A stretch of DNA of 64,000 nucleotides from Candidatus Dadabacteria bacterium (GCA_951812945.1 CATOTB010000001.1:488198-552197), one strand, 5' to 3'; positions 1,833 to 64,000 are shown, counted from the stretch's first letter. Notes: generated by a model not told the origin, from the sequence alone. Numbers and translations: made by a program.

Positions 1833-2001
1833 TGACTGATTACCCGGTACAATTACAGGAAGAGTTTCCAGAGGCTTAGCAACTGGAAATCGGGTGGGAA
1901 AAGGTTGATCAGGAACCGTTATGCCTGATATTAGTGCGGCCGTTAGGGTGGTTCCGTCGCAGCGACGAAATACCGTGTTTCTTCTCAAATCGATTTTTCT
2001 A

Positions 2002-2028
2002 TTGACTAACAGCGGGCAAGTGTATAGT
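2002..2028 (+). promoter_or_regulatory. putative sigma70-type promoter (TTGACT-N15-TATAGT) upstream of gap
   Basis: hexamers read directly; spacer is only 15 nt, so weak. Confidence 0.25.
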
Positions 2029-2066
2029 TTTTGCGAAGTTCAAAGTCAAGTTTCGGAGGTTTTGCG

Positions 2067-3074
2067 ATGTCCATCAGGGTTGGAATAAACGGGTTTGGAA
2101 GAATAGGAAGACACGTACTCAGAATCGGTCTTGACAGAGAAGACCTTGAGTTCGTGGGCATAAACGATATTACAGACACCGAGACCCTAGCTCATCTTTT
2201 CAAGTATGATTCGGTGTTTGGTCGTTACCCGGGAGATGTCGAATACGACGGCGGGGGAATAACCGTAGATGGAAAATTCATAAAGGTGTTTTCTGAGAGA
2301 AACCCTGCAAATATTCCCTGGGCCGACACGGGGGCGCAGGTTGTGGCGGAAGCAAGCGGCATTTTCAGAACCCGCGAGGCCGCGGCGGCGCATATGGGCG
2401 ATACCGTTAAGAAGGTCATAATTACCGCGCCCGCAAGCGGCAAGGTGGATTTCACCACGGTAATGGGCATAAACGATCATGACTACGAGCCAGGAAGCCA
2501 CGACGTGATTTCAAATGCGTCCTGTACGACCAACTGCTTTGGCATGCTGGTCAAGGTTCTTCACGAGAATTTCGCGATCAGGCGGGGAGAGATGACCACG
2601 ATACATTCCTACACGAACGATCAGAGAATACTTGACACTCCCCACAAGGATAAACGAAGGGCAAGAGCGGCCGCACTTTCCATTATCCCCACCAGCACGG
2701 GGGCGGCAAATGCCATACAGATCGTCTTTCCAGAACTCAAGGGGAAACTCTCTGCGGTCGCGGTAAGAGTTCCTACACCCAACGTATCGCTTGTGGATTT
2801 CACCTGCGAAGTGGAAAAAGGGACTTCTACGGAAGAAGTAAACGCTAAATTCAAGGAAGCGGCAGAGGGAAATCTCGGTGGCTACCTCGCTTATGTCGAG
2901 GACGAGATCGTTTCTTCCGATCTTGTGGGAGATACTCATTCCTGCTCTTTTGACTCCATGCTGACTTCGGTGGTGGAGGATAGCCTGGTCAAGGTCGTCG
3001 CCTGGTATGACAACGAGTACGGATACACTTCCAGGGTAGTTGATCTTATAGAACTTGTCGGGAGAGAGCTTTGA
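2067..3074 (+). CDS. gap: type I glyceraldehyde-3-phosphate dehydrogenase
   Basis: MSIRVGINGFGRIGR NAD-binding N-terminus and SNASCTTNC active-site motif; GGAGG RBS before ATG 2067 (track ORF starts further upstream at 2031). Confidence 0.92.
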   Translation: MSIRVGINGFGRIGRHVLRIGLDREDLEFVGINDITDTETLAHLFKYDSVFGRYPGDVEYDGGGITVDGKFIKVFSERNPANIPWADTGAQVVAEASGIFRTREAAAAHMGDTVKKVIITAPASGKVDFTTVMGINDHDYEPGSHDVISNASCTTNCFGMLVKVLHENFAIRRGEMTTIHSYTNDQRILDTPHKDKRRARAAALSIIPTSTGAANAIQIVFPELKGKLSAVAVRVPTPNVSLVDFTCEVEKGTSTEEVNAKFKEAAEGNLGGYLAYVEDEIVSSDLVGDTHSCSFDSMLTSVVEDSLVKVVAWYDNEYGYTSRVVDLIELVGREL

Positions 3075-4267
3075 AAAAAAAGCTTCTTGTAACTGATCTC
3101 CCGGGCTCGCAGTACGAAGGGAAAAGAGTCTTCGTAAGGGTTGATTTCAACGTTCCCGTAAACGGCGGGGAAATAACTGAAGATTACAGAATAAGGCGTA
3201 CTATTCCCACAATTGATTACCTTACAAGATGCGGGGCTAGGGTAATACTCGCTTCCCATATGGGAAGACCTAAGGGACGCAGGATAGAGCATCTTTCCAT
3301 GGCTCCTGTGGCTGCCAGGCTCAACGAGTTTCTGGGAACCAAGATTCATTTCCCGGGTGCTGTTGTAGGCAGGAAAGTCGAGAACACCTCAAAAAGACTC
3401 AAAAACGGCGAGGTAATGCTCCTTGAAAACCTAAGGTACCACAACGAGGAACAGGAAAATGATGCGGATTTCTCGAAAAAACTCGCATCTTTAGCCGATA
3501 TCTACGTGAACGAGGCTTTTGGCACCTCGCACAGGGCCCACGCTTCCACTTATGGAATGACTGCTCACTTCGATAAAAAACTCGCGGGCCTCATGGTGGG
3601 AAACGAAATGAAGTTTCTCAGTCGTCTGATAAGAAGACCCAAGAAACCCTATGTGGTCATTGTCGGGGGAATGAAGATAAAGGACAAAATAGGAGCTCTC
3701 AAGAACATAATCAAGAAGGCGGACAAAGTTCTTATAGGCGGCGGGGTGGCCTATACTTTCTTGGCGGCATGCGGGATGAGTGTCGGGAAATGTTCTGTGG
3801 AAAACGAGATGCTTTACTGGGCCCGGGACGCTCTTAACACCTACAAGGAGAAGATTCTTCTGCCCGTTGACCACGTGATGGCCGAGGCTGCCGGGGGCAA
3901 GAAAACACTTGCGGTTACGAGTTCAGAGATTCTCGATGACATGACGGCTTTTGACATAGGACCGAAGACGGTGGAGAAATTCACCTCTCATATAAAGGGA
4001 GAGGGTACAGTCTTCTGGAACGGTCCCATGGGATTTTTCGAGTTGGACGATTTCTCAAACGGCACAAGCGCTATCGCCAGATCGTTCGCACTTGCCACGT
4101 GGAGGGGAGCCATCACGGTTCTCGGAGGAGGGGACAGCGTGGCAGCGCTTAAAAAGTCCGGGGTCAAGTTTTCTGAAGCAACCCACGTTTCGACCGGGGG
4201 CGGTGCCTGTTTCGAGTTCCTCGGAGGATCCGACCTCCCGGGAATATCAATTCTCAGTGACAGCTAA
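3071..4267 (+). CDS. pgk: phosphoglycerate kinase
   Basis: PGK N-terminal motif RVDFNVP; TTG start overlaps the gap stop (TTGA). Confidence 0.92.
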
Positions 4268-4321
4268 GGTCTGATCAGGTATCTATTTCCGTAGAATCTG
4301 AAATTTTTCAGGGGTGAACTC

Positions 4322-5395
4322 ATGGCTATAAAGGAACTTAAGGGAATTGATAAGGTACAGGCGTTGTTGGGAGAGGATTCGGAATACCTGCTCGGCCACA
4401 AGTGTGCGACTATAAGCAAAAAAAGCCTTTATCTTCCAAGCCCGGATTACGTAGACGAGGTCTTCGTCCAGAACGACCGCTCGCCCGCGGTGATAAGAAA
4501 CCTGCAGACCATCCTTAACCACGGTCGTCTCGGGGGGACGGGATACGTATCCATCCTGCCGGTCGACCAAGGGATTGAGCATTCGGCTGGAGCCTCTTTT
4601 GCGGTGAATCCGCTCTATTTCGATCCTGAGAACATAGTTAAGCTTGCCATTGAGGGAGGGTGTAACGCCGTGGCCTCGACCGTGGGAGCGCTGGGTTCGG
4701 TTTCAAGAAAATACGCGCACAAAATCCCTTTCATAGCAAAAATCAACCACAATGAGCTGTTAAGCTATCCTAATACTTTCGATCAGATTCTTTTCGGGAA
4801 CGTAGACCAGGCTTTTCAGATGGGAGCAGTGGCAGTCGGGGCGACGATATATTTCGGCTCCGAGGAAAGTTCCCGCCAGATCGAGGAAATATCCGAGGTT
4901 TTCAGCCACGCCCATTCCCTGGGACTCGCGACCATACTCTGGGCTTATCTGAGGAACCCGGCTTTCAAGCAGGATGAGGCTGATTATCATGTGTCCGCTG
5001 ATCTCACGGGGCAGGCGAACCATCTCTCGGTAAGTGTAGGAGCCGATATAGTCAAGCAGAAGCTTCCGGAAAACAACGGCGGTTTCACGGCCCTCTCCTT
5101 CGGAAAGACCCACGAGCGCGTTTATTCGAAACTGACTTCCGATCACCCCATAGACCTTACCCGCTACCAGCTTGCCAACTGCTATATGGGAAGGATAGGG
5201 CTTATAAATTCTGGGGGTGCCTCAGGCTCGGACGATCTTGGAGACGCGGTGAGAACTGCCATTATAAACAAAAGGGCCGGAGGGATGGGGCTCATAAGCG
5301 GGAGAAAGTCTTTCCAGAAACCAATGAAGGAAGGCGTTGCGCTTCTGAAAAGCATTCAGAATATCTATCTGGAGAAAGAAATCACGATTGCCTGA
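4322..5395 (+). CDS. fbaB: class I fructose-bisphosphate aldolase (FbaB/DhnA-type)
   Basis: about 357 aa and similar across its length to DhnA-type class I aldolases; AGGGGTG RBS. Confidence 0.75.
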
Positions 5396-5405
5396 GCGCC
5401 CGGGC

Positions 5406-6455
5406 TTACTTGAAGTGACCTATTACTTCCCCTGCGAGCGTGTCGAATGAGTACTCAAGATCGGGGCTGAAATCCCTGATTATGAAGTGAGTGACTCCGG
5501 CTTCTATGTATTCCTCGAACCTTTTTATTGCGTCGCCGGCCGTTCCGTAAATTACGAAATCAGACAATATCTCCCGGGTATAGTATGTTTCTCCCATCTG
5601 CCGGAATCTGGTTAGCATGTCCTGGTCGTTGGGCATTATGCTTGTGTAGGAAAGCCCCTTGTACTTGGGATCTATTTTTAGGTCATACCCGGCTTCCTCT
5701 ATGACGTCCGGCCAGATTATTGCGTGCTTTATTCTGTCCAAGGTCTCGTAGGCCGCGTCCCTGTCTCTGGCGATGGACACGAAAATGTATATGCACTTTT
5801 CAAAGTTCTCCGGGGCAACGGGATTCTTGCTCATGGCTTTCTCTACTTCGCCGAGCTTGCTCGAAAAAACCCATGTGGGCATTGCGTTTGTCACCCAGCC
5901 GTTTCCAAGCGCGCCGGCGACCCCTAGAGCTTTCGGTCCGGTTGCGGCTATGTATACCGGAACTTCTCCGTTAACCGGGCTTATCCTTACCTCGGCTTCA
6001 CTAAGAGAGTAGAATTCTCCCTGAAAAGTCACCGTTTCCCCCGCCCATAACTGTCTCATAAGCGGTACGGATTCCCGCAGACGCGCAAGAGGCTTGTTCC
6101 AGCTTATACCGTAGTAGTCAAGATTCATTTTTTCCCCATATCCAAGACAGCTGAACGCTCTCCCCCCTGAGAGGTTGTCTATGGTCGCGAGTCTGTGAGC
6201 GAACATTGCGGGATGTGATCTGTGAGGATCCCCTATGGCTCCGAGCCGGATTCTGTCCGTTTTTACTGCCGCGGCCGTGATTACTGACCACACTTCCGGA
6301 GTCAGTTTTTTCGCCATAAACAGTATGTGGTCAGGAAACCATACGGCGTCGAAGCCGGCTGCCTCGCAGTTGACGGCGAAATCCACAAGTTCCGTAACCG
6401 GCTTGCCCGGAAGGGGTGCGGTAAGCCCGAAGCTTATTTTTTCACCCATTTTCAC
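5406..6455 (-). CDS. LLM-class (luciferase-like) flavin/F420-dependent oxidoreductase
   Basis: luciferase-like monooxygenase family pattern over the full length; overlaps the fbp stop by 4 nt. Confidence 0.7.
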
Positions 6456-7471
6456 TCCTCCTCAGGTTCTTTGGTGTCTTTTAAGAAGTTGAGAAACTTG
6501 CTTACCATGTTGTAGGAACCGATATATATGGGGGCTCTCTGGTGAAGTTCCGTAGGCTGAATGTCAAGCGTTCTTTCCGTTCCGCTTGACGAGGCTCCTC
6601 CTGCCTGTTCCACGATGAAGGCCATCGGATTGCACTCGTAGAGAAGCCTGAGTTTTCCGTTCGGAGAATCTGTGGTCTTCGGATAAATGAATATTCCTCC
6701 CTTGAGGAGGTTTCTGTGAATATCGGCGACCATGGATCCGACGTACCTGAGCGAGAGATTGGAGCTGTTTTCTCCGTCCCTGCAGTAGTCGAGATACTCC
6801 TTTACCCTCTTGGGAAATTTGGAATAATTGTAGTAGTTAACCGAGAAGATATTGCCGTGGCTAGGAATCTTTATGTTTGGATGGGAGAGGCAGAATTCTC
6901 CTATTGACGGATCAAGCGTAAACCCGTTTACTCCGTGGCCGGTAGTGTATACGAGCATGGTTGAAGAACCGTATATTATGTATCCTGCGGCCGTCTGGGC
7001 CTTGCCCGGCTGCAGGAAATCCTCCATGAGGCAAGGGGAGAACATCTTCGAAGTTCTTCTGTATACGGAGAATATGGTCCCCACTGACACGTTTACGTCT
7101 ATATTGGAGGACCCGTCAAGAGGATCCATAGCTATGACGTATTTTGAGGTCTTCGATTTCTCGTCTGAAAAAGCTATGAAATCCTCGTTTTCCTCAGACG
7201 CCACTCCAGCGCATTCACCGCCATGTTCAAGTGCAGTCAGAAACCTTTCGTTCGCGTAGGAATCGAGCTTTCTTACCTCTTCTCCTTGGATGTTTACCTG
7301 GCCCGTTTTGCCCAGGATCTCAGCGACAAGACCGGCTTTGTTCACTTCCCTGTGAACTATTTTCGCCGCAAACCCTATGTCTCGAAGCAGCCTTGAGAGC
7401 TCCCCGGTGGAATAGGGAAATTCATACTGATTTCTTATAATAAATTCGTCAAGAGTAGTTATCGAAACCAT
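6452..7471 (-). CDS. fbp: class 1 fructose-1,6-bisphosphatase
   Basis: FBPase class I motifs ([17 protein letters not shown]). Confidence 0.88.
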
Positions 7472-7671
7472 GTTGCGAGTTGTTCTAGAGAACGGCCGTG
7501 GACAAAAATCCTTCCTTTAAAAGTTTAACTGAATCGGTGGAGTTAATTAAGGGAATATTGATTAATGATGATCGGGGGAAATCACTTCGGCCTGAGAAGT
7601 CCACAGGCTTGCGGGGTCCTTAGGTGGTGTCGCGAAGAAGACAGCTGTAAATATCAAGAGGTCATCCCACC

Positions 7672-8208
7672 TCATTCAAAGTCTTGCTCTCGTTTTCCTT
7701 CCCGCAGTTCCCGCAGTTTTTCCAGGCTTTCGTCAAGGTTATCCGGCGCCTGTTCCCTGATAATGTTATATCCGGTAACAATTTTGGGAGCCAGAACGGA
7801 ATTCTTGATGAAAGGAGCATCCTCATCAACAAACTGCTTGACCCCGGTTACCAGGAGGTAGCAGAGCAGCAGACCGATTATGAATCCCAGCGCCCCGCCG
7901 AGGAGGTGGTTAAACCATCCCATTTTAATTTTTTCCAGCAGGTCCGTCAGGAAATGCGAGAGATAGTGTATAAGCATGTATGCGAGACATGCTACGATCA
8001 GAAATCCCAGGATGTCCGCGATTTTCGGTTCGGCGATAATGTTTTTTTCAAGCAGAATAGTGCCCAGAGGCTCATAGAAAAAAAAGCCCAGCGCTACTCC
8101 CCCTATTATGGCGGTCAGGGAGAAAACCTGCTTTATAAGGCCTGATCTGAGTCCTGCCCCGAAACAGACCAAGATCATGAATAAGAGTAGGATATCGAAC
8201 AGGTTCAA
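7672..8208 (-). CDS. cvpA: CvpA family membrane protein
   Basis: polytopic N-terminus typical of CvpA, about 178 aa. Confidence 0.75.
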   Translation of the reverse strand: MNLFDILLLFMILVCFGAGLRSGLIKQVFSLTAIIGGVALGFFFYEPLGTILLEKNIIAEPKIADILGFLIVACLAYMLIHYLSHFLTDLLEKIKMGWFNHLLGGALGFIIGLLLCYLLVTGVKQFVDEDAPFIKNSVLAPKIVTGYNIIREQAPDNLDESLEKLRELREGKREQDFE

Positions 8209-8338
8209 ATCGGTTTACCGTTACACTCTTGCGGACTGTATTACGAAAAATTTCATTTAAAAAAGGAAACTTACATCAGGTTAGGGGCAGTGTCCAGTCT
8301 TTGACTTGTCGGGTTCGTTCATATAGTCTAACCGTCCG

Positions 8339-9322
8339 ATGGAGTTCTCGGACATACTTGAGATAATTCACCCCAGCCTTGCGGAAACGGAAAGGAAAAT
8401 CGATGAATCCATAAAATCCGACGTTCCGCTGGTTTATGAGATAGCCAGGTATCTGCTTGGTGGGGGAGGAAAGAGAATCAGGCCTTCTTTGGTTCTTCTC
8501 TCAAGTGCGGCCTGCGGGCTTACCGATGGGAAAAACCGGATTGCGGCCGCCGCGGGCATTGAACTTTTCCATGCCGGCACGCTTTTTCACGACGACGTGG
8601 TCGACCAGGCGGAATTCAGAAGGGGAAACGCCTCTTCCAATATGGTCTGGGGAAACAAGCCCACCGTGCTCGTAGGGGATTTTATGCTGGCGCGGGGTCT
8701 TGAACTTATATACAGCTGCGGCAGCCTTGAACTCCTGAGAGTCATTTCCAGAGCCTCATCGCGTCTTGCCGAGGGACATGTGCTCGAGATCATGAGCGAA
8801 AGAAAGATGATTGAAATTTCAGAGGATTTCTGTTTTTCCGTAATTGATCACAAAACGGCGGCGCTCATTGAATGCTCGACCGAGACCGGAGCGCTTTTAG
8901 CTAATAGTTCGAACGGAGCGGTTAAAGCCCTTTCGCACTACGGCCACAACATAGGAATAGCGTTTCAGCTTATAGACGATGCGCTTGATTACTGCTCCGA
9001 GGAAAACAAATTCGGAAAAAAGACCGGCCAAGACCTAGCTGAACGCAAGATGACCCTTCCGCTTTACTATTCCATTGAAAATTCCCCGAAAGATGTAAGA
9101 CGCAAAGTGATCGAAACGCTTGATAAGGAAGATGACCTCGATAGTTCTGAAATAGCGGAAATAACGGAAGTTGTAAGCCACTACCGGGGAGTGGATATTA
9201 CCAAGCAGCGGGCAAAAGAGTTTGTAGTCGAGGCCAAAAAATCTCTGGATGCGATAGCGAAGAGCGATTATAAAGAATCCCTCGATAACCTTGCCGATTA
9301 CGTGGCTGAGAGAAATTTCTGA
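8339..9322 (+). CDS. ispB: polyprenyl diphosphate synthase (IspB/octaprenyl-type)
   Basis: two Asp-rich motifs (FHDDVVD, IDDALD) of trans-prenyltransferases. Confidence 0.85.
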   Translation: MEFSDILEIIHPSLAETERKIDESIKSDVPLVYEIARYLLGGGGKRIRPSLVLLSSAACGLTDGKNRIAAAAGIELFHAGTLFHDDVVDQAEFRRGNASSNMVWGNKPTVLVGDFMLARGLELIYSCGSLELLRVISRASSRLAEGHVLEIMSERKMIEISEDFCFSVIDHKTAALIECSTETGALLANSSNGAVKALSHYGHNIGIAFQLIDDALDYCSEENKFGKKTGQDLAERKMTLPLYYSIENSPKDVRRKVIETLDKEDDLDSSEIAEITEVVSHYRGVDITKQRAKEFVVEAKKSLDAIAKSDYKESLDNLADYVAERNF

Positions 9323-9771
9323 TAGTAACGGTCAAGCGCAAGACCCATGACATAGGCGTCTCCCCTTCCCCTGCCGTAGTAGTTCTTGCGTGTTCTTATG
9401 ATTTCGAACCCGAGTTTTTTATAAAGCTCGATCGCCGGGGCATTTGTCGTTCTTACTTCGAGAATGACGGAGAGGGCTCCCATTTTTTCGTAAAAATTAA
9501 ACGTGTCAGAGAGCAGTTCAATCGCTACTCCCTTTCTTCTGTGGCAGCGTGACACGGCGATTTTAAACACGTGAATTTCGTCGTAAATAAGAGTGGATAT
9601 TGAATAGCCTGCGACCTCTTCGTCTCTTCCGTTTATAGCGATATTGCAGAAAAACCCCGGCTTTTTAATGTAATCTGCGAGTATCTGTTTCGGCCACGGG
9701 GTAATAAAGGAATCGTTTTCGATTTCCACGATCTGGTTTATGTGCTTCGGTGAAACGGATTTTATAATCAT
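9298..9771 (-). CDS. rimI: ribosomal-protein-alanine N-acetyltransferase (GNAT)
   Basis: GNAT motif RRKGVAIELL; about 157 aa, RimI-like. Confidence 0.75.
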   Translation of the reverse strand: MIIKSVSPKHINQIVEIENDSFITPWPKQILADYIKKPGFFCNIAINGRDEEVAGYSISTLIYDEIHVFKIAVSRCHRRKGVAIELLSDTFNFYEKMGALSVILEVRTTNAPAIELYKKLGFEIIRTRKNYYGRGRGDAYVMGLALDRYYQKFLSAT

Positions 9772-9785
9772 TCTTCTTGTGCCGG

Positions 9786-10793
9786 CTAAGGCAAGCGAAG
9801 TTTTTCAAAGTAAAGGTCTAGCAGATTCGCGGCTCCGGTATAGGGATCCGTTTTCCCTTCCATCACTTTTTTCTCCACTTCGCCGAGCGTTTTTTTGACC
9901 GAAACGTTTTCGTAAAAACTGTCCTCAAGATTCTGGATCAGTACCTCGTGCAGGCGGTATTTCGCCTGCTTTCTTCTTTTTTCCGCAAAGTATCCGTTTT
10001 CTCTGCAGAGTTTTTCATACTCCGTGACGCATTGCCAGATTTCCTTTATTCCGTAGCCCGTGACGGATGAGCAGGCGTGAGCCTTGGGAATCCATCCGGA
10101 TTCTGGCGGTCTGTGAAATCTCAGCGCCTCTTCCATCTCCTGTTTCATAAGCTCCGCTTTTTTCTTGTTTCTTCCATCCGCTTTGGTTATCAATACGGCG
10201 TCAGCGCGCTCGATTATTCCCTTTTTTATTCCCTGGATGTCATCTCCCGCCCCGGTAATCATGAGCAGCATGAAGAAATCGACCATTGAGTGGCAGGTAA
10301 TTTCGGACTGTCCAACTCCCACCGTCTCTATAAAGATCGTGTCGAATCCCGCCGCCTCGCAGAGAATCACGGCATCGCTTGTCTTTTTTGCAACTCCTCC
10401 CAGGGAACCGGCTGACGGGGAAGGCCTTATGTAGACGTTTTCGTGCCGGGAAAGTTCCTGCATTCTGAGCTTGTCGCCGAGAACGCTTCCTCCGGTTTCG
10501 CTGCTTGTGGGGTCAATTGCGAGCACCGCTATCTTTTTTCCGCGCTCGTGCGCCAGATAGAGACCCAGAGATTCTATGAAGCTGCTCTTTCCGACTCCCG
10601 GTATGCCCGTAATTCCTACTCTTATGGATTTTCCGGACCGTGGCAGACACCACGTGATTATTTCCCGCGCAAGCTTCTTGTGCTCAGGCAGGGTGCTCTC
10701 GGCGAGGGTTATCGCCCTGCTCAGAACGGGTATTTCTCCCTTGGCTATGCCCCGGCGGTAGGTTTCCGCTTCTGTCTTTCTGCGCGACGTCAT
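9786..10793 (-). CDS. meaB: methylmalonyl-CoA mutase-associated GTPase MeaB/ArgK
   Basis: P-loop GIPGVGKSS and MeaB family pattern; start overlaps the mutB stop. Confidence 0.88.
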
Positions 10794-12922
10794 GTTCGGG
10801 TTTGTATAAGTGACAGGAGTATAGCTTCAGCCGCTTCGGACAGCACGGTTCCCGGACCGAATATCTGCGAGACTCCGGCTTTCCGGAGGTAATCGTAATC
10901 GCGTTTGGGGATAACCCCTCCCGCCACTACCATTATATCGTTGGCTCCCATCTCATCGAGTTTTTTTATCAGTTCGGGGATAAGGGTCTTGTGACCGGCA
11001 GCCAGGCTTGATATTCCGACTACGTGGACATCGTTTTCAACCGCCTGTCTTGCCGCCTCTTCCGGGGTCTGAAAGAGCGGGCCTATGTCAACGTCGAAAC
11101 CAAGGTCGGCAAAGCCAGTCGCTATTATCTTCGCCCCGCGGTCATGGCCGTCCTGCCCCATTTTCGCGACCAGTATTCTGGGTCTTCTTCCTTCCAGTGT
11201 GGCGAAGCGGTCGGCAAGTTCTCTTGCCTTGGCGAATCCGGCATCCTTCGAGATTTCCGAGGAGTATACTCCCGAAATCGTGCGCCACCCGGGCTGATAT
11301 CTTCCCCATACCTCTTCACACGCGTCTGATATTTCTCCTAGGGTCGCGTTTTCCCTCGCGGCCTCAACGGCTAGGGAAAGAAGGTTCCCTTCCCCTGTCC
11401 TGGCACATTCGGTAATTTTCTCAAGAGCGCGCTCCACTGCCCTGGAATCCCTTTCTTTCCTGAGTTTTTTTAGTCTTCTGATCTGATTCTGCCTCACCTT
11501 GCGGTTATCCACCTCAAGTATATCGAATTCTTCCTCTGCATCCGAACTGTATCTGTTGACTCCTACTATCACGTCTTTTCCCGAGTCTATTCTGGCCTGT
11601 TTTCGGGCTGCGGCCTCCTCGATTCTCATTTTCGGTAGGCCGGTTTCTATAGCTTTAGACATTCCGCCCAGTTCTTCTATTTCCATTATAAGTTCCCACG
11701 CTTTTCTCGCCAGATTGTGGGTCAGATATTCAACGTAGTAGGACCCCGCCCAGGGATCAATCAACCTGCATATATCGGTTTCTTTCTGAAGATAGAGCTG
11801 GGTGTTTCTAGCTATCCTGGCGGAGAAATCGGTGGGAAGGGCGATGGCTTCGTCAAGAGCGTTTGTGTGAAGCGACTGGGTGCCGCCGAGCACAGCGCTT
11901 AGGGCTTCAACGCAGGTTCTTGTCACGTTGTTAAACGGATCCTGTTCCGTAAGACTCCATCCCGAAGTCTGGCAGTGGGTTCTGAGCATAAGCGACCCTG
12001 GGTTCTTGGGCTTAAACTGATTGACGATTTTGGCCCATAACATTCTCGCAGCTCTCATCTTTGCGATTTCCATGAAGTGATCCATGCCTATTCCCCAGAA
12101 AAAAGAAATTCTGGGGGCAAAATCGTCGATACTGAGTCCCGCCTCAACGCCCGCTCTCAAATACTCAAGGCCGTCTGCGAGCGTGTAGGCAAGCTCTATG
12201 TCCGACGTGGCACCTGCTTCCTCCATGTGGTAACCGCTTACGCTTATCGAATTGAACTTCGGCATGTTCTTCGACGTGTATTCGAAAATGTCCGAGACTA
12301 TCTTCATCGAGAATTCGGGCGGATAGATGTAGGTGTTTCTTACCATGAACTCCTTGAGTATGTCGTTTTGGATCGTGCCGCTCAGTTTTTCCGGGCTCAC
12401 TCCCTGTCGCTCCGCGACGACTATATAGAAAGCCATGATCGGCAGAACCGCGCCGTTCATGGTCATGGAAACCGAGATTTCGTCAAGAGGTATTCGATCG
12501 AGAAGAATTTCCATGTCCAGTATCGAGTCTATTGCCACACCCGCCTTCCCGACATCTCCCGAAACTCTGGGGTGATCCGAGTCATACCCCCTGTGAGTCG
12601 GAAGATCGAAAGCTATGGAGAGTCCCTTCTGGCCAGCGGCCAGGTTTCTCCTGTAAAACGCGTTTGATTCCTCCGCGGTGGAGAACCCCGCATACTGTCT
12701 GATGGTCCAAGGTCTTGTGGTATACATGGTCGGGTAGGGCCCGCGAAGATAGGGTGGAATTCCAGGGACAAATCCCAGATGCTCGGAGTCGCTGAGATCG
12801 TCGTGGACATAAACCGTTTTTATGTCTATTTCTTCCGGTGATTCCCGTATTATATCTCCGGTTGCCTTGGCATTACCGCTCGAACCGGCTCCAAGCTTTA
12901 TTTTCGAAAAATCGGGTCTCAT
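10790..12922 (-). CDS. mutB: methylmalonyl-CoA mutase large (alpha) subunit with C-terminal B12-binding domain
   Basis: 710 aa; MCM catalytic TIM-barrel motifs plus a C-terminal cobalamin-binding Rossmann segment (DxHDRG). Confidence 0.9.
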
Positions 12923-55461: not shown

Positions 55462-57621
55462 ATGGCTTCTTCTATAACGGACATCTCGAGCAAGAGGGCC
55501 CCTGCCGGTTTTTCCAAAAAGGAAAAATATCTTAACAGGGAGCTTTCTTGGCTTGACTTTAACCTTAGGGTTCTTGAGACGGCGGCAGACAAGAAGGTTC
55601 CGCTTCTTGAGAGGGTGCGCTTTCTCTCCATCTCCGCTAGCAACCTCGATGAGTTCTACATGGTCAGGGTGGCGGGTCTTGCGGGACAGGTTATGGAGGG
55701 AGTTACAGATCGCAGCAAAGACGGCCTTACTGCGTCGCAGCAGCTTGAAGCGATAAGGGAGAAGGTGCACTTCCTGCTTGACAGCCAGTACGAGTGCGAA
55801 AAGGACTTGTTTTCCCTCTGCAAGAAGGCCAAGATCAAGATCGTAACTCCCGAGAAACTCGACCGCTCGGGCGCCAGATGGCTTTCCGAGTGGTTCTCTA
55901 AAAAGCTTTTTCCGGTGCTTACCCCGCTTGCCATAGACCCAGCGCATCCGTTTCCCTTCATACAGAGTGGGAGCCTTGTGTGCGCCGTGCAGCTGAGCCG
56001 CGCCGAGGACGGAAAGCGCATGAAGGGTCTCATAATTCTGCCTTCTCAGGTTGAGCGCTTCATAAGGGTTCCGGGAGGAAAAAAAACCCAATTTGTCCCG
56101 ATCGAGAAGGTCATCGAGCACAACATGAAATCCCTTTTCCCGGGTTTTGAAGTGGATGACAACGGGATCTTCCAGATCACCCGAGACAGCCTTCTTGAGA
56201 TAGACGAAGACGCGGAAGATCTGGTCGAGACGTTTGAAACTGCCCTTAAGCAGCAACGCAGGGGAGGGTCAGTGATCAGGGTTGACGTCAACGCGGACAT
56301 GCCGGATGCGATCGTCAACTTCATAATGGACAAGCTTGAGGCCAGTGACGCGCATTTTTTCAGAATCAAGGGGATGCTCGGGCTTGAAAGCGTGAAACAG
56401 ATAATACTCGATGAGCGAAGCGACCTTCTTTACAAGCGCATGAGTATCCGCTACCCCGAGCGGGTCAGAGAATTCGGAGGCGACGTGATAGCCGCCATAC
56501 GGCAGAAGGATTTCGTCGTTCACCATCCCTACGAGAGTTTCGACGTCGTCGTTGAGTTCCTCAAGCAGGCAGCCGAGGATCCGGCGGTCGTTGCGATCAA
56601 GCAGACGCTTTACCGCACCTCGGAAGACTCTCCGATAGTGAAAAGGCTCATAGAAGCTGCTGAGGCCGGAAAATCCGTAACTGCCATGGTGGAGCTCAAG
56701 GCCCGTTTCGATGAGGAGGCCAACATCCGCTGGGCGCAACGCCTCGAGGATGCGGGAGTCCAGGTTGTGTTCGGATTCATTGACCTTAAAACACACGCCA
56801 AGGTATCGCTGGTAGTGAGAAGGGAAGGTTCTGACATCCGTACCTACACCCACTATGGCACCGGCAACTATCACCCCGTAAACGCCAAGATATACACAGA
56901 CCTCAGCTACTTCACAGCCGACGAGGCGCTCGGCCGCGACGCCGCCAAGCTTTTTAACTACATGACCGGCTATGCCACTCCGAAGAAGATGGAGAGGATA
57001 TTTTTCTCTCCCGTCACGATGCGCCCGAAGGTGCTTGAGCTTATAAGGGACGAGATAGACCATGCGAAGGCCGGCCGCCCCGCGGTGATATGGGCCAAGA
57101 TGAATTCCCTTGTGGACAGCAAGATAATAGACGCGCTTTACGCGGCGAGTTGCGCGGGGGTAAGAATTGAGCTTTTCGTTCGGGGAATATGCTGCCTGAG
57201 GCCCGGGGTGCCGGGGCTCTCCGAGAATATCAGGGTAAAGAGCATTGTGGGGCGTTTCCTTGAGCACAGCAGGGTTATCTGCTTTGGCGCCGGGGAGGGG
57301 CTTCCTTCTAATGCCTGCAAGGTCCTCATCTCGTCTGCGGACTGGATGCCCCGTAATCTTGACCGCAGGGTGGAGTCGCTTGTTCCAATTGAAAACGCCA
57401 CGGTGAAAAAGCAGCTTGTCGAGCAGGTGATGGTTGCTAACCTAAATGATGTCGCGAACAGCTGGGAGATGCTCCCTGATGGTTCTTTCCGCAAGCTAAA
57501 AAGCGATTCGGACAGTTTTTCGGCTCATAAATACTTTATGACCAACCCCAGTCTTTCAGGAAGAGGCAAAGCGCTTGCCAAATCCCGGCCGCAAATGCCG
57601 GCTGAGTTTGTGCAGGAATAA
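55462..57621 (+). CDS. ppk: polyphosphate kinase 1
   Basis: 719 aa; PPK1 N, head and two PLD-like C-terminal domains. Confidence 0.93.
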   Translation: MASSITDISSKRAPAGFSKKEKYLNRELSWLDFNLRVLETAADKKVPLLERVRFLSISASNLDEFYMVRVAGLAGQVMEGVTDRSKDGLTASQQLEAIREKVHFLLDSQYECEKDLFSLCKKAKIKIVTPEKLDRSGARWLSEWFSKKLFPVLTPLAIDPAHPFPFIQSGSLVCAVQLSRAEDGKRMKGLIILPSQVERFIRVPGGKKTQFVPIEKVIEHNMKSLFPGFEVDDNGIFQITRDSLLEIDEDAEDLVETFETALKQQRRGGSVIRVDVNADMPDAIVNFIMDKLEASDAHFFRIKGMLGLESVKQIILDERSDLLYKRMSIRYPERVREFGGDVIAAIRQKDFVVHHPYESFDVVVEFLKQAAEDPAVVAIKQTLYRTSEDSPIVKRLIEAAEAGKSVTAMVELKARFDEEANIRWAQRLEDAGVQVVFGFIDLKTHAKVSLVVRREGSDIRTYTHYGTGNYHPVNAKIYTDLSYFTADEALGRDAAKLFNYMTGYATPKKMERIFFSPVTMRPKVLELIRDEIDHAKAGRPAVIWAKMNSLVDSKIIDALYAASCAGVRIELFVRGICCLRPGVPGLSENIRVKSIVGRFLEHSRVICFGAGEGLPSNACKVLISSADWMPRNLDRRVESLVPIENATVKKQLVEQVMVANLNDVANSWEMLPDGSFRKLKSDSDSFSAHKYFMTNPSLSGRGKALAKSRPQMPAEFVQE

Positions 57622-57625
57622 CTCT

Positions 57626-59154
57626 ATGACAGAAATTTCTTCCTCCGCCGCGCCCTTCGGCAAGGTCGGAACCGCGGCCGTAATAGACGTAGGATCAAAC
57701 TCCATACGTCTTGTGATCTACAAGGGCCCGAGGCGCGCCCCGCTTCCAATACTTGATGAGAAGGTTTCCTGCGGCTTGGGGCGCGGGATGGACTCTCGGG
57801 GCAGGATGTCTCCGCAGAGCATGGATCTCGCCCTGCGAACTGTAAGCCGCTTTGTCGATATCGCGCGCTCGATGAAGGTTTCCGGAATAAAGGCGGTTGC
57901 CACCGCCGCGGTGAGAAACGCCTCAAACGGCTCCGACTTCAAAGAGGCTGTTGAGCAGCAATGCGGGATTTCACTTCGGGTGCTCTCTGGCATGGACGAG
58001 GCAAGGCTTTCCGCGCTCGGTACTCTCTGCGCCATTCCTGACGCTGACGGCGTAATGGGGGATATAGGCGGCGGAAGCCTTGAGTTGGTAGAGATTTGCG
58101 AAGGGGAATTAGGAAACCACGCCACGTTACCGCTTGGCACGATCCCGCTTCTTGAAAGCGGCCTGAGTCCCGTAAAGGCCCGAAAGAAACTGATTGTCCC
58201 CCTCCTTGACGAGCTTTCCTGGCTTGAGAACGCGAAAAAGAAAACCTTCTACGCCGTCGGGGGTTCGTGGCGAGCTCTTGCTAAAAAACACATGGAATCT
58301 GAGGATTATCCGCTTCGCATAGTTCACGGCTACAGTCTTTCGAGATCCAAGGCGGTTGAGATGTCCGGGAGATAGCCGAGATGTCTTCGGGTTCGCTTCA
58401 GGATCTCTGGACCCTGGGGCGAAACAGGGTGGAGTCCGCTCCCTACGCCGCCACGCTTATGAAGAGTCTTCTGAAAAAAACGGGCGTTAACAACCTCATG
58501 TTTTGCACGTACGGGCTTCGGGAGGGATGTATATACGACGATCTTTCCCCGGAGCAGAGTTCTCTGGATCCGCTGGTTGTCATGTGCGAGGAAATCGCCC
58601 TTAAGATGGGAAGGTCCGTTGAGGACGGCAAGGCTTTCTGCAAGTGGATAGAGGCGGCAATTCCAGATAAATACGCCGGAGACTCGAGGCTTAGGCTCGC
58701 CGCATGCCATCTCTCGGACATAGGAATTTCCGAGCATCCGGAATACCGGGCGGAGCAGGTGTTTTTAAGGATACTGCGGATGCCGCTTGTGGGAATCACT
58801 CATCCGGAGAGGGTGAAGGTGGCTCTCTCGGTATCTTCAAGACACGCGGCAATAGGAAACCTGATTCGCCGCTGGGAAGTTTCCGGGTTTCTTTCCAATG
58901 ATGATGTGGAGGAAGCCAGGGTTACGGGGCTTGCTCTTCGTCTGGCTTACACGGTCTCGGGAGGGGTGGCGCGGATTCTTGAGAGTACCAGGCTTGAGAG
59001 AGCCGGGAAAAAGCTTGCTTTGCATATGCCTGGCCAGATTCCTCACCCGGAAACCGTCGGTCGCCGTCTGGGGGCCCTTGCAAAGGCCGTCGGATGCGAT
59101 TATGAGACGATTGCGCGGGATCAAGCTAATGAAACCGCTGGGTGGGGAACTTAG
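57626..59154 (+). CDS. ppx: Ppx/GppA-family exopolyphosphatase, split into two ORFs by a frameshift near 58345-58395 (57626-58375 and 58381-59154)
   Basis: N-terminal actin-like Ppx-GppA domain (VIDVGSNSIRLVIY) in ORF 1; the continuation (…GLREGCIYDDL) and HD-like region in ORF 2 are in another frame. Confidence 0.65.
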
Positions 59155-59203
59155 ATTCGTGTAGAATTCCCTCTGACTTTTAGCTGTTTGCTGGTCGGAT
59201 CTG

Positions 59204-60106
59204 ATGAATTTACTTGACGCAATAGACAACCTGAATATCTGGAAGCAAGGGGACAAAAGAGCTCCTCACAAGCCTCTACTTCTTCTATATGCGCTCGCTG
59301 AACAAGTCCGAAATCCAGACGCTAGGTTTGAGTTTTTTCGTATAGAAGAAAATATTGATCAGTTATTAAATGATTTTTACAAATCATTTCCCGGACGCAG
59401 ACACCATGTAAATGATCCTTTCTGGCGCCTTCGCGGGGATGGAATCTGGAAAGTAGAATCCGACGGAATAATAAGGGAAACCAGTTCAGGAGGTGCTTAT
59501 GTAAGCGATTTAAGGAAATACAATGCTACGGGTTCGTTTTCTAAAGGGGTTGTTCAAGAGATAAGAAATAATCCTGAAGTTGCTTTGCAGGCCGCACGGA
59601 AACTGCTTAATGAACATTTTCCCGAATCATTGCATCAAGATATACTGGAGACTGTAGGATTAGATTACAAGACAATTTCTGCTAAAGAATACATTTCTAA
59701 AAAAACTAAAAGAGACAGTACATTTCGGCAGAAGGTTCTTCACGCCTACGGTTACAGTTGTGCGGTGTGCGGGTTTAATCTGCGCATGAAAACTCTTCCT
59801 GTCGGACTGGAAGCGGCGCATATCAAGTGGCATCAGCATGGAGGACCAGATGCTGAAAACAACGGACTGGCACTATGCGCCACGCACCACAAGTTGCTTG
59901 ACTCGGGGGTGCTGGCACTCTCTGACAATTACCAAATCATTCTTTCAGAGTGGATATTTGATCCCGACCGAAAAAACAGTTTTATACGGGAGCATCATAA
60001 CCGTGAAATCAGATTGCCTAGGAACAGCAACCATTTGCCCAAAATGGATTATATCCGCTGGCACAGAAAAGAAGTGTTTAAAGAACCCGAACTAGTTTTG
60101 ATTTAG
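59204..60106 (+). CDS. McrA-like HNH endonuclease with an uncharacterised N-terminal domain (candidate modification-dependent restriction enzyme)
   Basis: C-terminal HNH: CAVCGF...LEAAHIKWHQHGGPDAENNGLALCATHHKLLDSG; N-terminal domain with KAPHKPLLLLYAL; AT-rich. Confidence 0.65.
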   Translation: MNLLDAIDNLNIWKQGDKRAPHKPLLLLYALAEQVRNPDARFEFFRIEENIDQLLNDFYKSFPGRRHHVNDPFWRLRGDGIWKVESDGIIRETSSGGAYVSDLRKYNATGSFSKGVVQEIRNNPEVALQAARKLLNEHFPESLHQDILETVGLDYKTISAKEYISKKTKRDSTFRQKVLHAYGYSCAVCGFNLRMKTLPVGLEAAHIKWHQHGGPDAENNGLALCATHHKLLDSGVLALSDNYQIILSEWIFDPDRKNSFIREHHNREIRLPRNSNHLPKMDYIRWHRKEVFKEPELVLI

Positions 60107-60539
60107 TAGTACTAAGTGAAATAAATTCTCAAATCTGATTGCGAGATGCGGCAATACGAAGAAAAAGCCTTTTTTGATTCTTGAGATACTGCCAAGATAA
60201 AGTGATAGCAACAATCTGTATGGAACTTTCAACGTCGCAACAATCTCTGGGCATGCCAAGTCTTAATCGTGCATGGTTGCTTGGAATCTTGGCCAACATC
60301 TCTTCATGAGATCGTTGCCGATGTACTGTGATAAAAGGAATTTGAATTGTTCGGTATGTACTTCTTTAAGCTTATTACCAAACGAATGATCAAGGCATGT
60401 GTAGGCAGTTCCTCAAAACACCGAAAAGAACTGACAAAGGAGATGCCGCTTGGAAACAAATGGGTGGTTTAGGGCGGCATTACAGTTGTTGCCACCATGC
60501 TGGAGAGAACCCTGACGAGGCAAACACAGGAGTATTGCG

Positions 60540-61586
60540 ATGAATCGAACGAAAGTATTTCTTGATTCCAACATCTTAATCCAAGCGGGGAAACCACCGG
60601 GTGGGCCGGTCCTCGAACGGTTGAAGCATTTGGTTAATGCCGGTCTTGTAACTGTGCTGACCACGGATCTGACCTGCCGGGAGGTTGCGAAGAAGCATAC
60701 TGAAAACGACTACAATGTCATAAAAGAAGTTGGACAACCTCATTTCCGCAATATAGTTAAGGACATACTGGGCACCAAGTTTCCCAAAATCACTAAAAGC
60801 AAACTGAAAACCAAACTTGCCAAGTCATACAGGCAATCCACCGAGGCTATGCTCACTGAGCTCAACTGCAGAATGCTGAAAATTGACGATATTAAACCTT
60901 CCAAAGTGTTATTTTCTTACACTAACGGAGAGGGGTTCTTTGCTGGAGAGGCAAAAAAGGAACAATTTCCCGACGCTTTTATCTTCGAGTGTCTCAAGGC
61001 CGAAGCGTCAGGGGAAGAATCGATTATAGTTGTCTCGAATGACCGTGATTTCAAAAAACCGGTCGAGGATGAGGCTCACATCTCGCTCGTGAAATCCTTG
61101 CCCGAACTCTTTGAAAGGATGGGTCTTAAAATTGACGCACCCGACATGGAGGGTTTCCTTGAGTGTCATGAGGGTAAGTTGTTTGAAGCGGTCAACGAAG
61201 AGTTGAATTGCTGGGGATTCGTTGGAGATGTTCCAGACTCCGAGATTGAAGAGACAACAGTAACTGATGTGAGAGTAATTAAACTCGCAAGTTTCGGGTC
61301 GACTGAGAAAAGAGGCTCAATTCTGATAGTCGGTCGTCTCCATGTGAGAGCGGAGATTTCATATGCCCATCCGGACTGGGATACCGCAATGTACAGCGAC
61401 GACGATATCCTTGTCTGGATTAATGATGAGCGCGTGAGTGGCGAGACTGAAGTCGGCTTCAATGTGGATGTGTCGATGTCGGTAGCGGTGGATAAAAACG
61501 ACAATCCCAAGAGCATTGAAGAACTGCGTTTCCTAAACGGCGACTTTCAGCATATCGAGCTCCACAGTGATCATTATCACGATTAG
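60540..61586 (+). CDS. PIN-like nuclease domain protein with C-terminal domain of unknown function
   Basis: PIN signature acidic residues (VFLDSNILI ... IVVSNDRDF); GGAG RBS. Confidence 0.55.
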   Translation: MNRTKVFLDSNILIQAGKPPGGPVLERLKHLVNAGLVTVLTTDLTCREVAKKHTENDYNVIKEVGQPHFRNIVKDILGTKFPKITKSKLKTKLAKSYRQSTEAMLTELNCRMLKIDDIKPSKVLFSYTNGEGFFAGEAKKEQFPDAFIFECLKAEASGEESIIVVSNDRDFKKPVEDEAHISLVKSLPELFERMGLKIDAPDMEGFLECHEGKLFEAVNEELNCWGFVGDVPDSEIEETTVTDVRVIKLASFGSTEKRGSILIVGRLHVRAEISYAHPDWDTAMYSDDDILVWINDERVSGETEVGFNVDVSMSVAVDKNDNPKSIEELRFLNGDFQHIELHSDHYHD

Positions 61587-61642
61587 CGGAAACGCAGTCT
61601 GGGAAAAACAATGTCTTGCGTCAATCAACATGACTCAAGTTT

Positions 61643-62293
61643 ATGAACAGGGTAAAATCCTCTGGATTCCAGGTTGAGGTATGGATTAACATGTTGCCCG
61701 ACTTTCCTAAGATAAAGAAAGACATCCATAAGAAATTGCTTATCCCATATGCCAAGCACAAGAGGGCATCACGTCTGGGGATTTTGAACCAAATGACCTT
61801 AATAAAAGTGCATGAAGGCAATAATAGTCGGATCCTCAGAAGCGACAAAACTCAAGATACGGCGAGACCGAATGATATTTCAGGAAGCTTTTCATATGAA
61901 CTTTCCGATATAAAAGATATGACGATAGAAGATGTTTTTAGGAATATAGACGATGCAACGGAAGAGCTTACTATTAAACTGATTGATCATGTCGTGAATA
62001 AAGTCGAAACCGTCTGCGAAGAAACGGGCAACGTACTAAATCTTAACAACAAGAAATTTACCGCCGTTCACTACCTTGAACTTCTTGAAAAACTTGAAAT
62101 AAGATTCGATTGTAACGGAGATCCGATTTTGCCGGATGCTCTTGTGGGTGCTTCACTTGATCCAAAGGCTATAAAAGAAGAGATGCAAAAAACACAAAAG
62201 GATGAAACGCTTCGAAAAAGATTTGCCGAAATCATAAGCAAGAAAAGAGAAGAGCATAATGCTAGAGAGGGTAATAGAGAACTGGTTAGATAA
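61643..62293 (+). CDS. hypothetical protein (probable start ATG 61691)
   Basis: ORF overlapping the downstream gene by 35 nt; no family I recognise. Confidence 0.4.
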   Translation: MNRVKSSGFQVEVWINMLPDFPKIKKDIHKKLLIPYAKHKRASRLGILNQMTLIKVHEGNNSRILRSDKTQDTARPNDISGSFSYELSDIKDMTIEDVFRNIDDATEELTIKLIDHVVNKVETVCEETGNVLNLNNKKFTAVHYLELLEKLEIRFDCNGDPILPDALVGASLDPKAIKEEMQKTQKDETLRKRFAEIISKKREEHNAREGNRELVR

Positions 62294-63926
62294 CGTGACG
62301 GAAAGATCGTTTGAGAACTCTTTTTGTCACATGCTTGCTTACCGAGGCTACACCGTTTTACACAAGACCAGGCATACCGGACTGGAAATGGGCAAGGATG
62401 TAATTGCCGTAGCGGAAGACGGCGTCCCTTGTGTTTTTCAGTTGAAAACCGCGGTGAACGGAACCATAAAACAGCGATACTGGACTGATAACATACAGAA
62501 TCAAGTTATTACGATGATCAATACCAAACCGATCCATCCAGCTTTGAAAGACTATAGCCACCACAGATCTTATTTTGTTACGAACGGAAAAATAGAAGAA
62601 GAGGTAACGCGGCAGATAGATGATTTAAACAGAAGGTTTGAAGCTCAGGGATGTGGACATAAAAAATTGGAAGTAATTGTCAAAGGTCAGTTGTCGGCAT
62701 GGGCAAAAGAACTGGAAACGGACTTGTGGCCGTCGGAACTGACAGACGTTCGGCTGCTTCTTGAACTCTTTCTTGAAGATGGAAAAGATGTTCTTGATAA
62801 AGCAAAGCTGTCCCGGCTTCTTGAGGCCTGCGTTAATTTTGAAAGCCATCCGAATAAAAAGGAGTCGAAAAGAGCAGTCTCGAGTTTAGCCCTCTTAAAC
62901 GCTGTTGCCGTAAGCAACTATTCGAACTCGAAGAACTACGTTGCCGAGATTGAAGCATGGGTGATCTACATGTCTTATTTATTTGCTTATGCTGAAAAAT
63001 GGAAAATTGGAAAGAAAATCTGGTCTGAAGAATTTAACATTGCGAAGAATTATATTGGTCAGCTTCTGGGAGAGCTTTATAAGGAAGTAAAATCCTCCAA
63101 ATTTTATATCGAGGGTGACCCAAGCACAGAACCATTTCTTATTTACCCTATACGGATTACATACTTGATTTCTCTTATGAGCATTTTCTCTTTATGGGCT
63201 GAATGTGAAAATTTTGACGACAATGAAGAAATAAATGAGTTCTGCAGGGAGTTCTGTTTAAAAAACAAAGACTATATGCTTTTGTGGGGAGAGGCCGCTG
63301 TACCTCAGTACTTATCATTCTACTGGTATTACAGCAAAATTGACGCAACCATCTCACCCTCTAATTTCTTATTAGGTGCTATTGGACAAATTATTGCGTT
63401 AAACAAGCCCAAGAACTTGCCAAAACAAGAAAATGTTTTCAGGGGAAACGAACACTTGTACCTTCCGCAAAACGATGGGATAGCGAACGCTTATTACAAT
63501 TCTAATGAATTATTGCCATATCTGCTCGGAATAAACGATGAACCGATTGAGGATCATTTTTTAGAACGCTCCCAAACTTTATGGGCTTTAATTGAGATTT
63601 ACGTCCGCTTGAATTTTCAAAGACCGGTATTCATGTTCTGGAAAGATGCAACATACATTAGCGAGGTTGAATTCAAGCCCAAATACAAATGGCATTTCTT
63701 TAGATGGAAAAATGATGAGGGAGAAGTGGTAGAAGAACAGAAAAATGGGCAAAAATGGCCTGAATTAAGAAAGCAAGTTCAAGAAATTGATTACAGGAAT
63801 ATTCCAGAAAAATTCAAGAAAGAACCTATATTGTTTTTGTTGTTTTTATGTGTATATCCCCATCGCATCTCTACTTCAATTGTGAAATGGCTTGATAGCG
63901 AAATCCGTGAACAAGAAACTGATTAG
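62259..63926 (+). CDS. protein with N-terminal Mrr-like PD-(D/E)xK nuclease domain and about 450-aa C-terminal region of unknown function
   Basis: FENSFCHMLAYRGYTVLHKTRHTGLEMGKDVIAVAEDGVPCVFQLK fits the Mrr_cat pattern (D...D/E-x-K as GKDVIA...FQLK); remainder has no family I recognise. Confidence 0.5.
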   Translation: MLERVIENWLDNVTERSFENSFCHMLAYRGYTVLHKTRHTGLEMGKDVIAVAEDGVPCVFQLKTAVNGTIKQRYWTDNIQNQVITMINTKPIHPALKDYSHHRSYFVTNGKIEEEVTRQIDDLNRRFEAQGCGHKKLEVIVKGQLSAWAKELETDLWPSELTDVRLLLELFLEDGKDVLDKAKLSRLLEACVNFESHPNKKESKRAVSSLALLNAVAVSNYSNSKNYVAEIEAWVIYMSYLFAYAEKWKIGKKIWSEEFNIAKNYIGQLLGELYKEVKSSKFYIEGDPSTEPFLIYPIRITYLISLMSIFSLWAECENFDDNEEINEFCREFCLKNKDYMLLWGEAAVPQYLSFYWYYSKIDATISPSNFLLGAIGQIIALNKPKNLPKQENVFRGNEHLYLPQNDGIANAYYNSNELLPYLLGINDEPIEDHFLERSQTLWALIEIYVRLNFQRPVFMFWKDATYISEVEFKPKYKWHFFRWKNDEGEVVEEQKNGQKWPELRKQVQEIDYRNIPEKFKKEPILFLLFLCVYPHRISTSIVKWLDSEIREQETD

Positions 63927-64000
63927 GGCGGACATTGCGGATATTTCAGAAGGTTATGGGGCAGAGCAATGCCAGTCAGATTTTCTCGTTGTATTTTCGT

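Follow-up and report, generated by a model that had tools for sequence, protein, structure and literature searches.

The window analysed here is a stretch of 64,000 nucleotides (nt) from Candidatus Dadabacteria bacterium (GCA_951812945.1 CATOTB010000001.1:488198-552197), and at its right end lie two overlapping genes on the plus strand, a small upstream gene, S, and a larger downstream gene, L. An initial annotation, made from the sequence alone, had described the pair as a small hypothetical gene joined by a 35-nt overlap to a gene for an Mrr-like PD-(D/E)xK nuclease, in a layout typical of many recently described phage defence systems. The open reading frames (ORFs) and the elements within them are as follows.

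61643-62293, plus strand: ORF of S in its long form, 216 amino acids (aa)
61643-61690, plus strand: in-frame 16-codon extension 5' of S, missing from the listed homologues
61676-61679, plus strand: GAGG, Shine-Dalgarno-like, read from the sequence, 11 nt upstream of the ATG at 61691
61691-62293, plus strand: gene S in its likely true extent, 200 aa, helical partner protein
62241-62254, plus strand: purine-rich stretch AGAAAAGAGAAGAG inside S, encoding K-K-R-E-E, 5-18 nt upstream of the L start
62259-62293, plus strand: dual-coding overlap of 35 nt, shared by the final 11 codons and stop of S and the opening 11 codons of L
62259-63926, plus strand: gene L, 555 aa, a nuclease at the N-terminus followed by a predicted all-alpha C-terminal domain
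62259-62708, plus strand: L residues 1-150, predicted Mrr/FokI-type PD-(D/E)xK nuclease domain, with E15, E43, D47, Q61 and K63 invariant
62736-63923, plus strand: L residues ~160-555, family-specific acidic, aromatic-rich domain, predicted all-alpha, isoelectric point (pI) 5.1

Both ORFs and the extent of L were placed correctly by the initial annotation, which began S at 61643. All S homologues found begin at an internal 'MLPDF' that corresponds to the ATG at 61691 in the window, this ATG is preceded by the GAGG listed above, and a weak promoter-like match, from a scan whose total was not above chance, falls at 61630-61658, inside the longer ORF. For these reasons S most likely starts at 61691, and the extension upstream is probably untranslated. 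The window's exact 200-aa S sequence is absent from the protein collection searched, while the 200-aa forms of its relatives are present there.

To follow the pair beyond the window, we used a set of 80 loci, of which 74 came from a genome scan (many from related Poribacteria, and four from cultured isolates) and the remainder from metagenomes. S lies directly upstream of L in 80/80 of these loci, at identities down to 25%, and the co-occurrence that the initial annotation had named as a check is borne out. No third conserved gene accompanies the pair, S and L alone recurring across the 80 loci. The overlap described at the outset, in which L reads in the +1 frame relative to S, has a length of exactly 35 nt in 79 of the 80, down to ~25% protein identity, which is far beyond chance.

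The nucleotide sequence of the overlap is constrained in both frames. Over 73 distinct junctions, wobble entropy averages 1.64 bit outside the overlap, whichever frame is read, and within it falls to 0.51 bit for the L frame and 0.30 bit for that of S. The commonest changes that are tolerated are synonymous in both frames, with ATC/ATA at Ile6 of L matched by CGA/AGA at an Arg of S, and AAC/AAT at Asn8 of L matched by CTG/TTG at a Leu of S, each in 73/73 junctions. Upstream of the overlap, the stretch at the K-(R/K)-E-E codons of S reads AAGGAGGAA in most relatives, a strong Shine-Dalgarno sequence for L. Translational coupling of S and L, as the initial annotation had proposed, is a reasonable inference from this geometry.

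Other ways in which the junction might act were considered as well. RNAalifold, applied to 28 diverse junctions, predicted 0 pairs and no conserved RNA structure, and a conserved coupling hairpin or frameshift stimulator at this site was rejected. A programmed +1 frameshift yielding an S-L fusion is an unnecessary assumption, since L has its own RTG start at a conserved position in 72 of the 74 loci examined and a Shine-Dalgarno sequence in most of them. The junction shows no motif for slippage or for a shift at the stop codon, and the best 150 of the 1,350 cluster representatives of the L family share one architecture, with no fused length and no S-L fusion among them.

The sole locus without the 35-nt overlap, in a Harrisonbacteria metagenome-assembled genome (MAG; locus L050, 9880-10060), carries a duplicated junction. 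There the S tail, ...RKLVD, is retained over a degenerate relic in the L frame, 'EKPKENWW', which derives from 'ERVIENWL', and L has a 33-aa insert followed by a second, intact 'LERTIENWL' at the start of the nuclease. S and L still overlap in this genome, by 44-47 nt. Since the duplicated junction keeps both the S tail and a second intact L start, the S tail and the N-terminal peptide of L each seem to be required for their own sake. A separate observation concerns annotated L starts: RefSeq begins L at a downstream Met in Muricoccus/Roseomonas nepalensis (L042, 528 vs 552 aa) and in Jidongwangia harbinensis (L079, 520 vs 544 aa), with the result that the conserved first helix is lost and the overlap with S is hidden.

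The family is large and widely spread. L has 423 full-length homologues, and its 1,350 cluster representatives at 50% identity include 617 at E <= 1e-30. The loci belong to Poribacteria, Acidobacteriota, Bacteroidota, Chloroflexota, Thermodesulfobacteriota, Calditrichota, Lentisphaerota, Actinomycetota, Alphaproteobacteria and a bacterium of the candidate phyla radiation, as well as to two archaeal MAGs (Bathyarchaeia and Woesearchaeota). Pairwise identities of S and L correlate (r = 0.87), and ratios of nonsynonymous to synonymous substitution (dN/dS) of 0.13-0.30 for S and 0.08-0.22 for the two domains of L indicate real genes under purifying selection. Two MAGs each hold two divergent pairs, in which L is 81% and S 54% identical (Poribacteria Plut_88888, L013/L019) or L is 70% and S 54% identical (CAZURU01, L012/L023), suggesting that S diverges much faster than L between paralogous pairs. 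In 6 of ~72 complete loci L is disrupted while S is intact, and a seventh locus (L078) is damaged in both genes; the lesions are in-frame stops, frameshifts or truncation (L027, L030, L048, L069, L072, L073 and L078). One of these loci, L073, is from the cultured Pedobacter suwonensis DSM 18130, and for the remaining ones MAG assembly errors are possible. Algoriphagus taiwanensis JCM 19755 carries the pair intact (WP_338230209.1). The breakage of L with S kept is the pattern expected for a costly nuclease.

We generated a predicted structure of L with AlphaFold2 from a 59-sequence alignment (predicted local distance difference test, pLDDT, 80; predicted template modelling score, pTM, 0.70). 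Residues 1-150 form an alpha-beta-beta-beta-alpha-beta nuclease core in this model, as required of the PD-(D/E)xK fold, and the closest structural matches of the domain were the FokI cleavage domain (score 11.8, 137 residues aligned), the Mrr-like AF1548 (11.3), both subunits of BspD6I (10.4), AspBHI (9.7), the Type ISP enzyme LlaBIII (9.3) and MspJI (9.1). The residues E15, E43, D47, Q61 and K63 are unchanged across 59 close and 43 diverse members, as expected of catalytic residues, and D47 and Q61-x-K63 align with the D and QxK of neighbouring Type ISP Mrr_cat_2 domains (profile-profile comparison, E 5.5e-5, probability 66%). In contrast, the Pfam Mrr_cat profile (PF04471) matched the window's L with 14.5 bits (E 0.041), below its gathering threshold of 21 bits, and just 7 of 59 L relatives gave even a sub-threshold match (best E 0.013).

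Taken by its structural matches, its invariant residues and its alignment to the Type ISP profile, L is predicted to share its fold and active site with Mrr/FokI-type nucleases while falling outside strict Pfam family membership, and its nuclease domain, with the catalytic residues intact, does not look degenerate. The initial annotation had assigned an Mrr catalytic core from the motifs GKD and QLK. Both motifs, G45-K46-D47 and Q61-L62-K63, are invariant across the family, and the PD-(D/E)xK assignment survived the structural prediction that had been proposed as its check; what did not hold was an Mrr identity in the Pfam sense.

The remaining ~400 aa of L, part of a region that had been noted as Trp/Tyr-rich with no recognised match, are indeed aromatic-rich (W 3.2%, Y 5.9%, F 5.7%) and acidic (net charge -15), and they have no match in Pfam, NCBIfam, PADLOC, PHROGs or the PDB sequences. 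Many polar and aromatic residues are near-invariant, in motifs such as AEIEAW..Y..Y, LWGEAA.PQ, YPHR and RWLD, and residues 383-414 form a variable loop of low model confidence. Pfam and structure comparison detected none of the known folds for DNA recognition (SRA, winged helix, SBD), and PDB sequence searches with full-length L, its N-terminal domain, its C-terminal domain and S produced nothing real. A hydrophobic stretch at residues 524-542 was considered as a membrane helix and rejected as too short, with ~11 residues ahead of PHR.

The S family has ~198 aa and in most members an acidic pI (median 5.05); in the window copy the pI is close to neutral (7.0). Conservation is found mostly at both termini (MLPDF... 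and ...KREE.xxRE.NR.LV.) and in the short motifs hEG, GN and LEK..iDFD..G.P, and the centre is the variable part of the protein in the family alignment. S is modelled as three long helices together with small sheets (pLDDT 78, pTM 0.51). We found no relative of S in Pfam, NCBIfam, PADLOC, PHROGs or the PDB, by sequence or by fold, and the 62 S proteins share no recurring Pfam family, giving only scattered sub-threshold matches of which the best reached 3/62. Neither a known antitoxin fold nor a DNA-binding domain of the helix-turn-helix (HTH), ribbon-helix-helix (RHH) or AbrB type was detected in S, and the Pfam scan of the 62 proteins and the PDB fold comparison detected no nuclease. A likeness to ScdA_N/RIC (E 0.008 and 6e-5, far below cut-offs, in 3/62 members) is attributed to chance, and a match of the S profile to AbiGII (E 0.16) is not significant.

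In the window, the pair stands in a stretch of low GC content. The housekeeping genes ppk and ppx end at 59154, to the left of this stretch, and GC falls from ~55% in their region to ~40-45% over ~59150-64000, staying low to the window end. This drop suggests that ~59150-64000 is a horizontally acquired islet whose right border would lie beyond the window. It opens with a restriction gene and continues with the PIN_12 gene, S and L to the window end.

59204-60106, plus strand: phosphorothioate-DNA-dependent SBD-HNH restriction endonuclease, 300 aa (NF045808, E 1.8e-96; Pfam HNH_2)
60540-61586, plus strand: PIN_12 protein, 348 aa (PIN_12 at the N-terminus, E 2.6e-28; C-terminal half of ~175 aa with no domain assigned)

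The PIN_12 protein has no PADLOC match and no linkage to S-L at other loci. To the left of the islet, ppx is split into two plus-strand ORFs in different frames, 57575-58375 (covering positions 10-218 of 285 of the Ppx-GppA profile) and 58381-59154 (Ppx_C), which may reflect either a frameshift/pseudogene or a sequencing error.

At other loci the flanking genes vary, and defence or mobile genes are often among them, in many independent examples. The flanks differ even among copies 86-93% identical to those of the window, which argues that the S-L pair moves as a unit. Type ISP restriction-modification (R-M) genes stand beside S-L at 12 loci, mostly of related Poribacteria, and the flanks elsewhere include Type I R-M genes, integrase and excisionase, a reverse transcriptase, SLFN_AlbA_2/HATPase_c_4, SIR2_2 together with DUF4238 and AAA_16 with a cold-shock domain, GIY-YIG with DUF5677, and Gp49/HTH_37 toxin-antitoxin (TA) genes. 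Genes of a type IV secretion system and integrative and conjugative element (ICE) occur there too, together with SocA_Panacea and HicB. On a contig classed as viral (L083, IMG/VR UViG_3300050335_000119, 82-12094), S-L directly follows a QatABCD-like set (KAP NTPase, an unknown protein, QueC-like, TatD) and a Schlafen/UvrD-like helicase and precedes a GmrSD_N-like gene, in what by its gene content is a dense defence island. Across 145 flanking proteins from ~40 diverse loci, R-M families were the commonest Pfam families (N6_Mtase in 4/145), the rest being single housekeeping matches. As a further observation, S-L is immediately preceded at L080 and L081 by a 980-aa protein (4145-7087 and 4714-7656, respectively) that combines AAA_16/AAA_22 with a cold-shock domain, an arrangement not seen in the window; L of L080 is 86% and S of L081 is 91% identical to the window copies.

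We favour the reading, at a probability of roughly 0.55, that S and L together make up a mobile two-gene module of defence or conflict, most likely directed against phages or other mobile genetic elements and consisting of an Mrr/FokI-type effector, an acidic helical regulatory or sensor domain, and a small gating or co-sensing partner. In such a module S and L would be made from one mRNA, with synthesis of L tied to translation of S because the L start codon and its Shine-Dalgarno sequence lie inside the end of S. The nuclease of L would be an active effector against DNA fused to the acidic helical platform, S would bind L and gate it as an inhibitor or a co-sensor, and an infection cue or the loss of S would free the nuclease, which, like FokI-type cleavage domains, would have to pair up before it could cut the double-stranded DNA of invader, host or both. 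The linkage in 80/80 loci, the predicted nuclease fold and the defence and mobile genes in the flanks lend computational support to the nuclease-plus-partner defence system that the initial annotation had envisaged, with phage protection as its predicted outcome. A more ambitious form of the reading, which we advance tentatively and regard as possible rather than probable, is that S-L represents an ancient, widespread and so far unrecognised immune system of bacteria and archaea, numbering at least 1,350 clusters (50% identity), its subunits joined by the invariant dual-coding overlap, with S as the variable sensor or gate of a FokI-like nuclease on a new helical platform. In this form of the reading the overlap, whose bases encode the conserved end of the fast-diverging S as well as the first nuclease helix, would fix co-expression and perhaps co-translational assembly.

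Several results weigh against a defence role. Neither S nor L has a family match in PADLOC, Pfam, NCBIfam or PHROGs, and the case therefore draws on genomic context; in PADLOC-DB v2.0.0 there is no match to either at E <= 1, and the pair is not a catalogued defence system. The Type ISP association is not independent, many of the loci being related Poribacteria, and housekeeping genes of an ordinary kind make up many of the S-L flanks. For S as a whole, dN/dS reflects purifying selection, with no arms-race signal. No homologues were found in PLSDB plasmids or INPHARED phages, and IMG/VR yielded just one.

The main rival, which is itself compatible with a defence role, is a TA-like addiction module in which the nuclease of L is the toxin and S a labile proteic antitoxin acting by direct binding, the pair stabilising its host islands or mobile elements with or without phage defence. 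A strictly two-gene unit with a smaller, typically acidic protein upstream that overlaps a downstream nuclease would suit this explanation, as would the occurrence among SocA_Panacea, HicB and Gp49/HTH_37 TA genes and on an ICE, and the decay of L with S kept intact in several genomes. However, S shows none of the DNA-binding domains or folds of known antitoxins, a 555-aa L with a strongly conserved extra domain of 400 aa far exceeds the typical toxin in size, and no homologue was found on the sequenced plasmids of PLSDB, so that we consider a TA module unlikely, if still a serious contender. The same structural matches that define the nuclease domain (FokI, both BspD6I subunits, AspBHI, MspJI, LlaBIII), the frequency of R-M neighbours and the phosphorothioate-dependent restriction enzyme nearby in the window would also agree with a Type IV or Type IIS-style restriction enzyme, in which L cuts DNA whose recognition, as modified or sequence-specific, falls to its C-terminal domain, to S in an accessory role, or to both, an arrangement like that of the two-subunit R.BspD6I. 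We think this improbable, since no methyltransferase is conserved with the pair across the 80 loci, the acidic C-terminal domain of L (pI 5.1, -15) and the acidity of most S proteins (median pI ~5) speak against DNA binding, no SRA, winged helix or SBD was detected, and S is not a nuclease.

A housekeeping factor of DNA repair or recombination, or a non-nuclease role of a degenerate PD-(D/E)xK domain, is very unlikely. The latter is contradicted by the invariant catalytic residues, and the former sits poorly with the patchy spread across distant phyla and archaea, the flanks that vary between near-identical copies, the deviant GC of the islet in the window, the frequent disruption, and the presence of several divergent copies within one MAG.

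If the defence or conflict module is confirmed, it would add a large and taxonomically broad family to the nuclease-based immune and conflict systems, one that is especially common in Poribacteria, soil Acidobacteriota and Bacteroidota. Poribacteria are sponge-associated, which agrees with the sample names. All checked members carry the NCBI name 'hypothetical protein', and we found no published description of S-L in the literature, although it may be listed in a recent large-scale prediction set. Having no known relatives, S and the 400-aa helical domain of L might each embody a new mechanism of sensing or regulation. As a natural case of a dual-coding region frozen in place, the overlap, which persists down to 25% protein identity, is unusually clean, and it offers a simple handle for finding S-L in genomes.

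The effector type of S-L is already known, and what is new is the partner S, the C-terminal domain of L and the rigid dual-coding overlap. With Mrr_cat (PF04471) and Mrr_cat_2 (PF13156, of Type ISP enzymes such as LlaBIII), L shares the alpha-beta-beta-beta-alpha-beta PD-(D/E)xK fold and the D...QxK signature, in which Gln replaces the second acidic residue. It differs from Mrr and Type ISP enzymes in having no winged-helix or other DNA-recognition domain, helicase or methyltransferase, its nuclease being placed instead N-terminal to an acidic helical domain without known relatives and always accompanied by S. FokI and R.BspD6I, the latter a large nickase with a small subunit, show just 10-12% sequence identity to L; S-L lacks their recognition domain and cognate methyltransferase, and S, for its part, is no nuclease and lacks relatives by fold.

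In the Avs/AVAST family and Upx, a single chain senses phage and carries an Mrr-like nuclease effector at its N-terminus (PMC13601566, PMC13099982). In contrast, L has neither a STAND NTPase nor a second nuclease domain, is half their size or less, and carries a C-terminal domain unrelated to theirs by sequence, and S-L includes an obligatory overlapping partner gene. Type II TA operons resemble S-L in having a small upstream protein whose gene overlaps that of a downstream toxic-type enzyme, and in forming a mobile two-gene unit found among TA genes. They are set apart by the missing antitoxin-type DNA-binding fold in S, by the conserved 400-aa extra domain in L, and by their usual overlap of 1-4 nt, as opposed to the rigid 35 nt that joins S to L.
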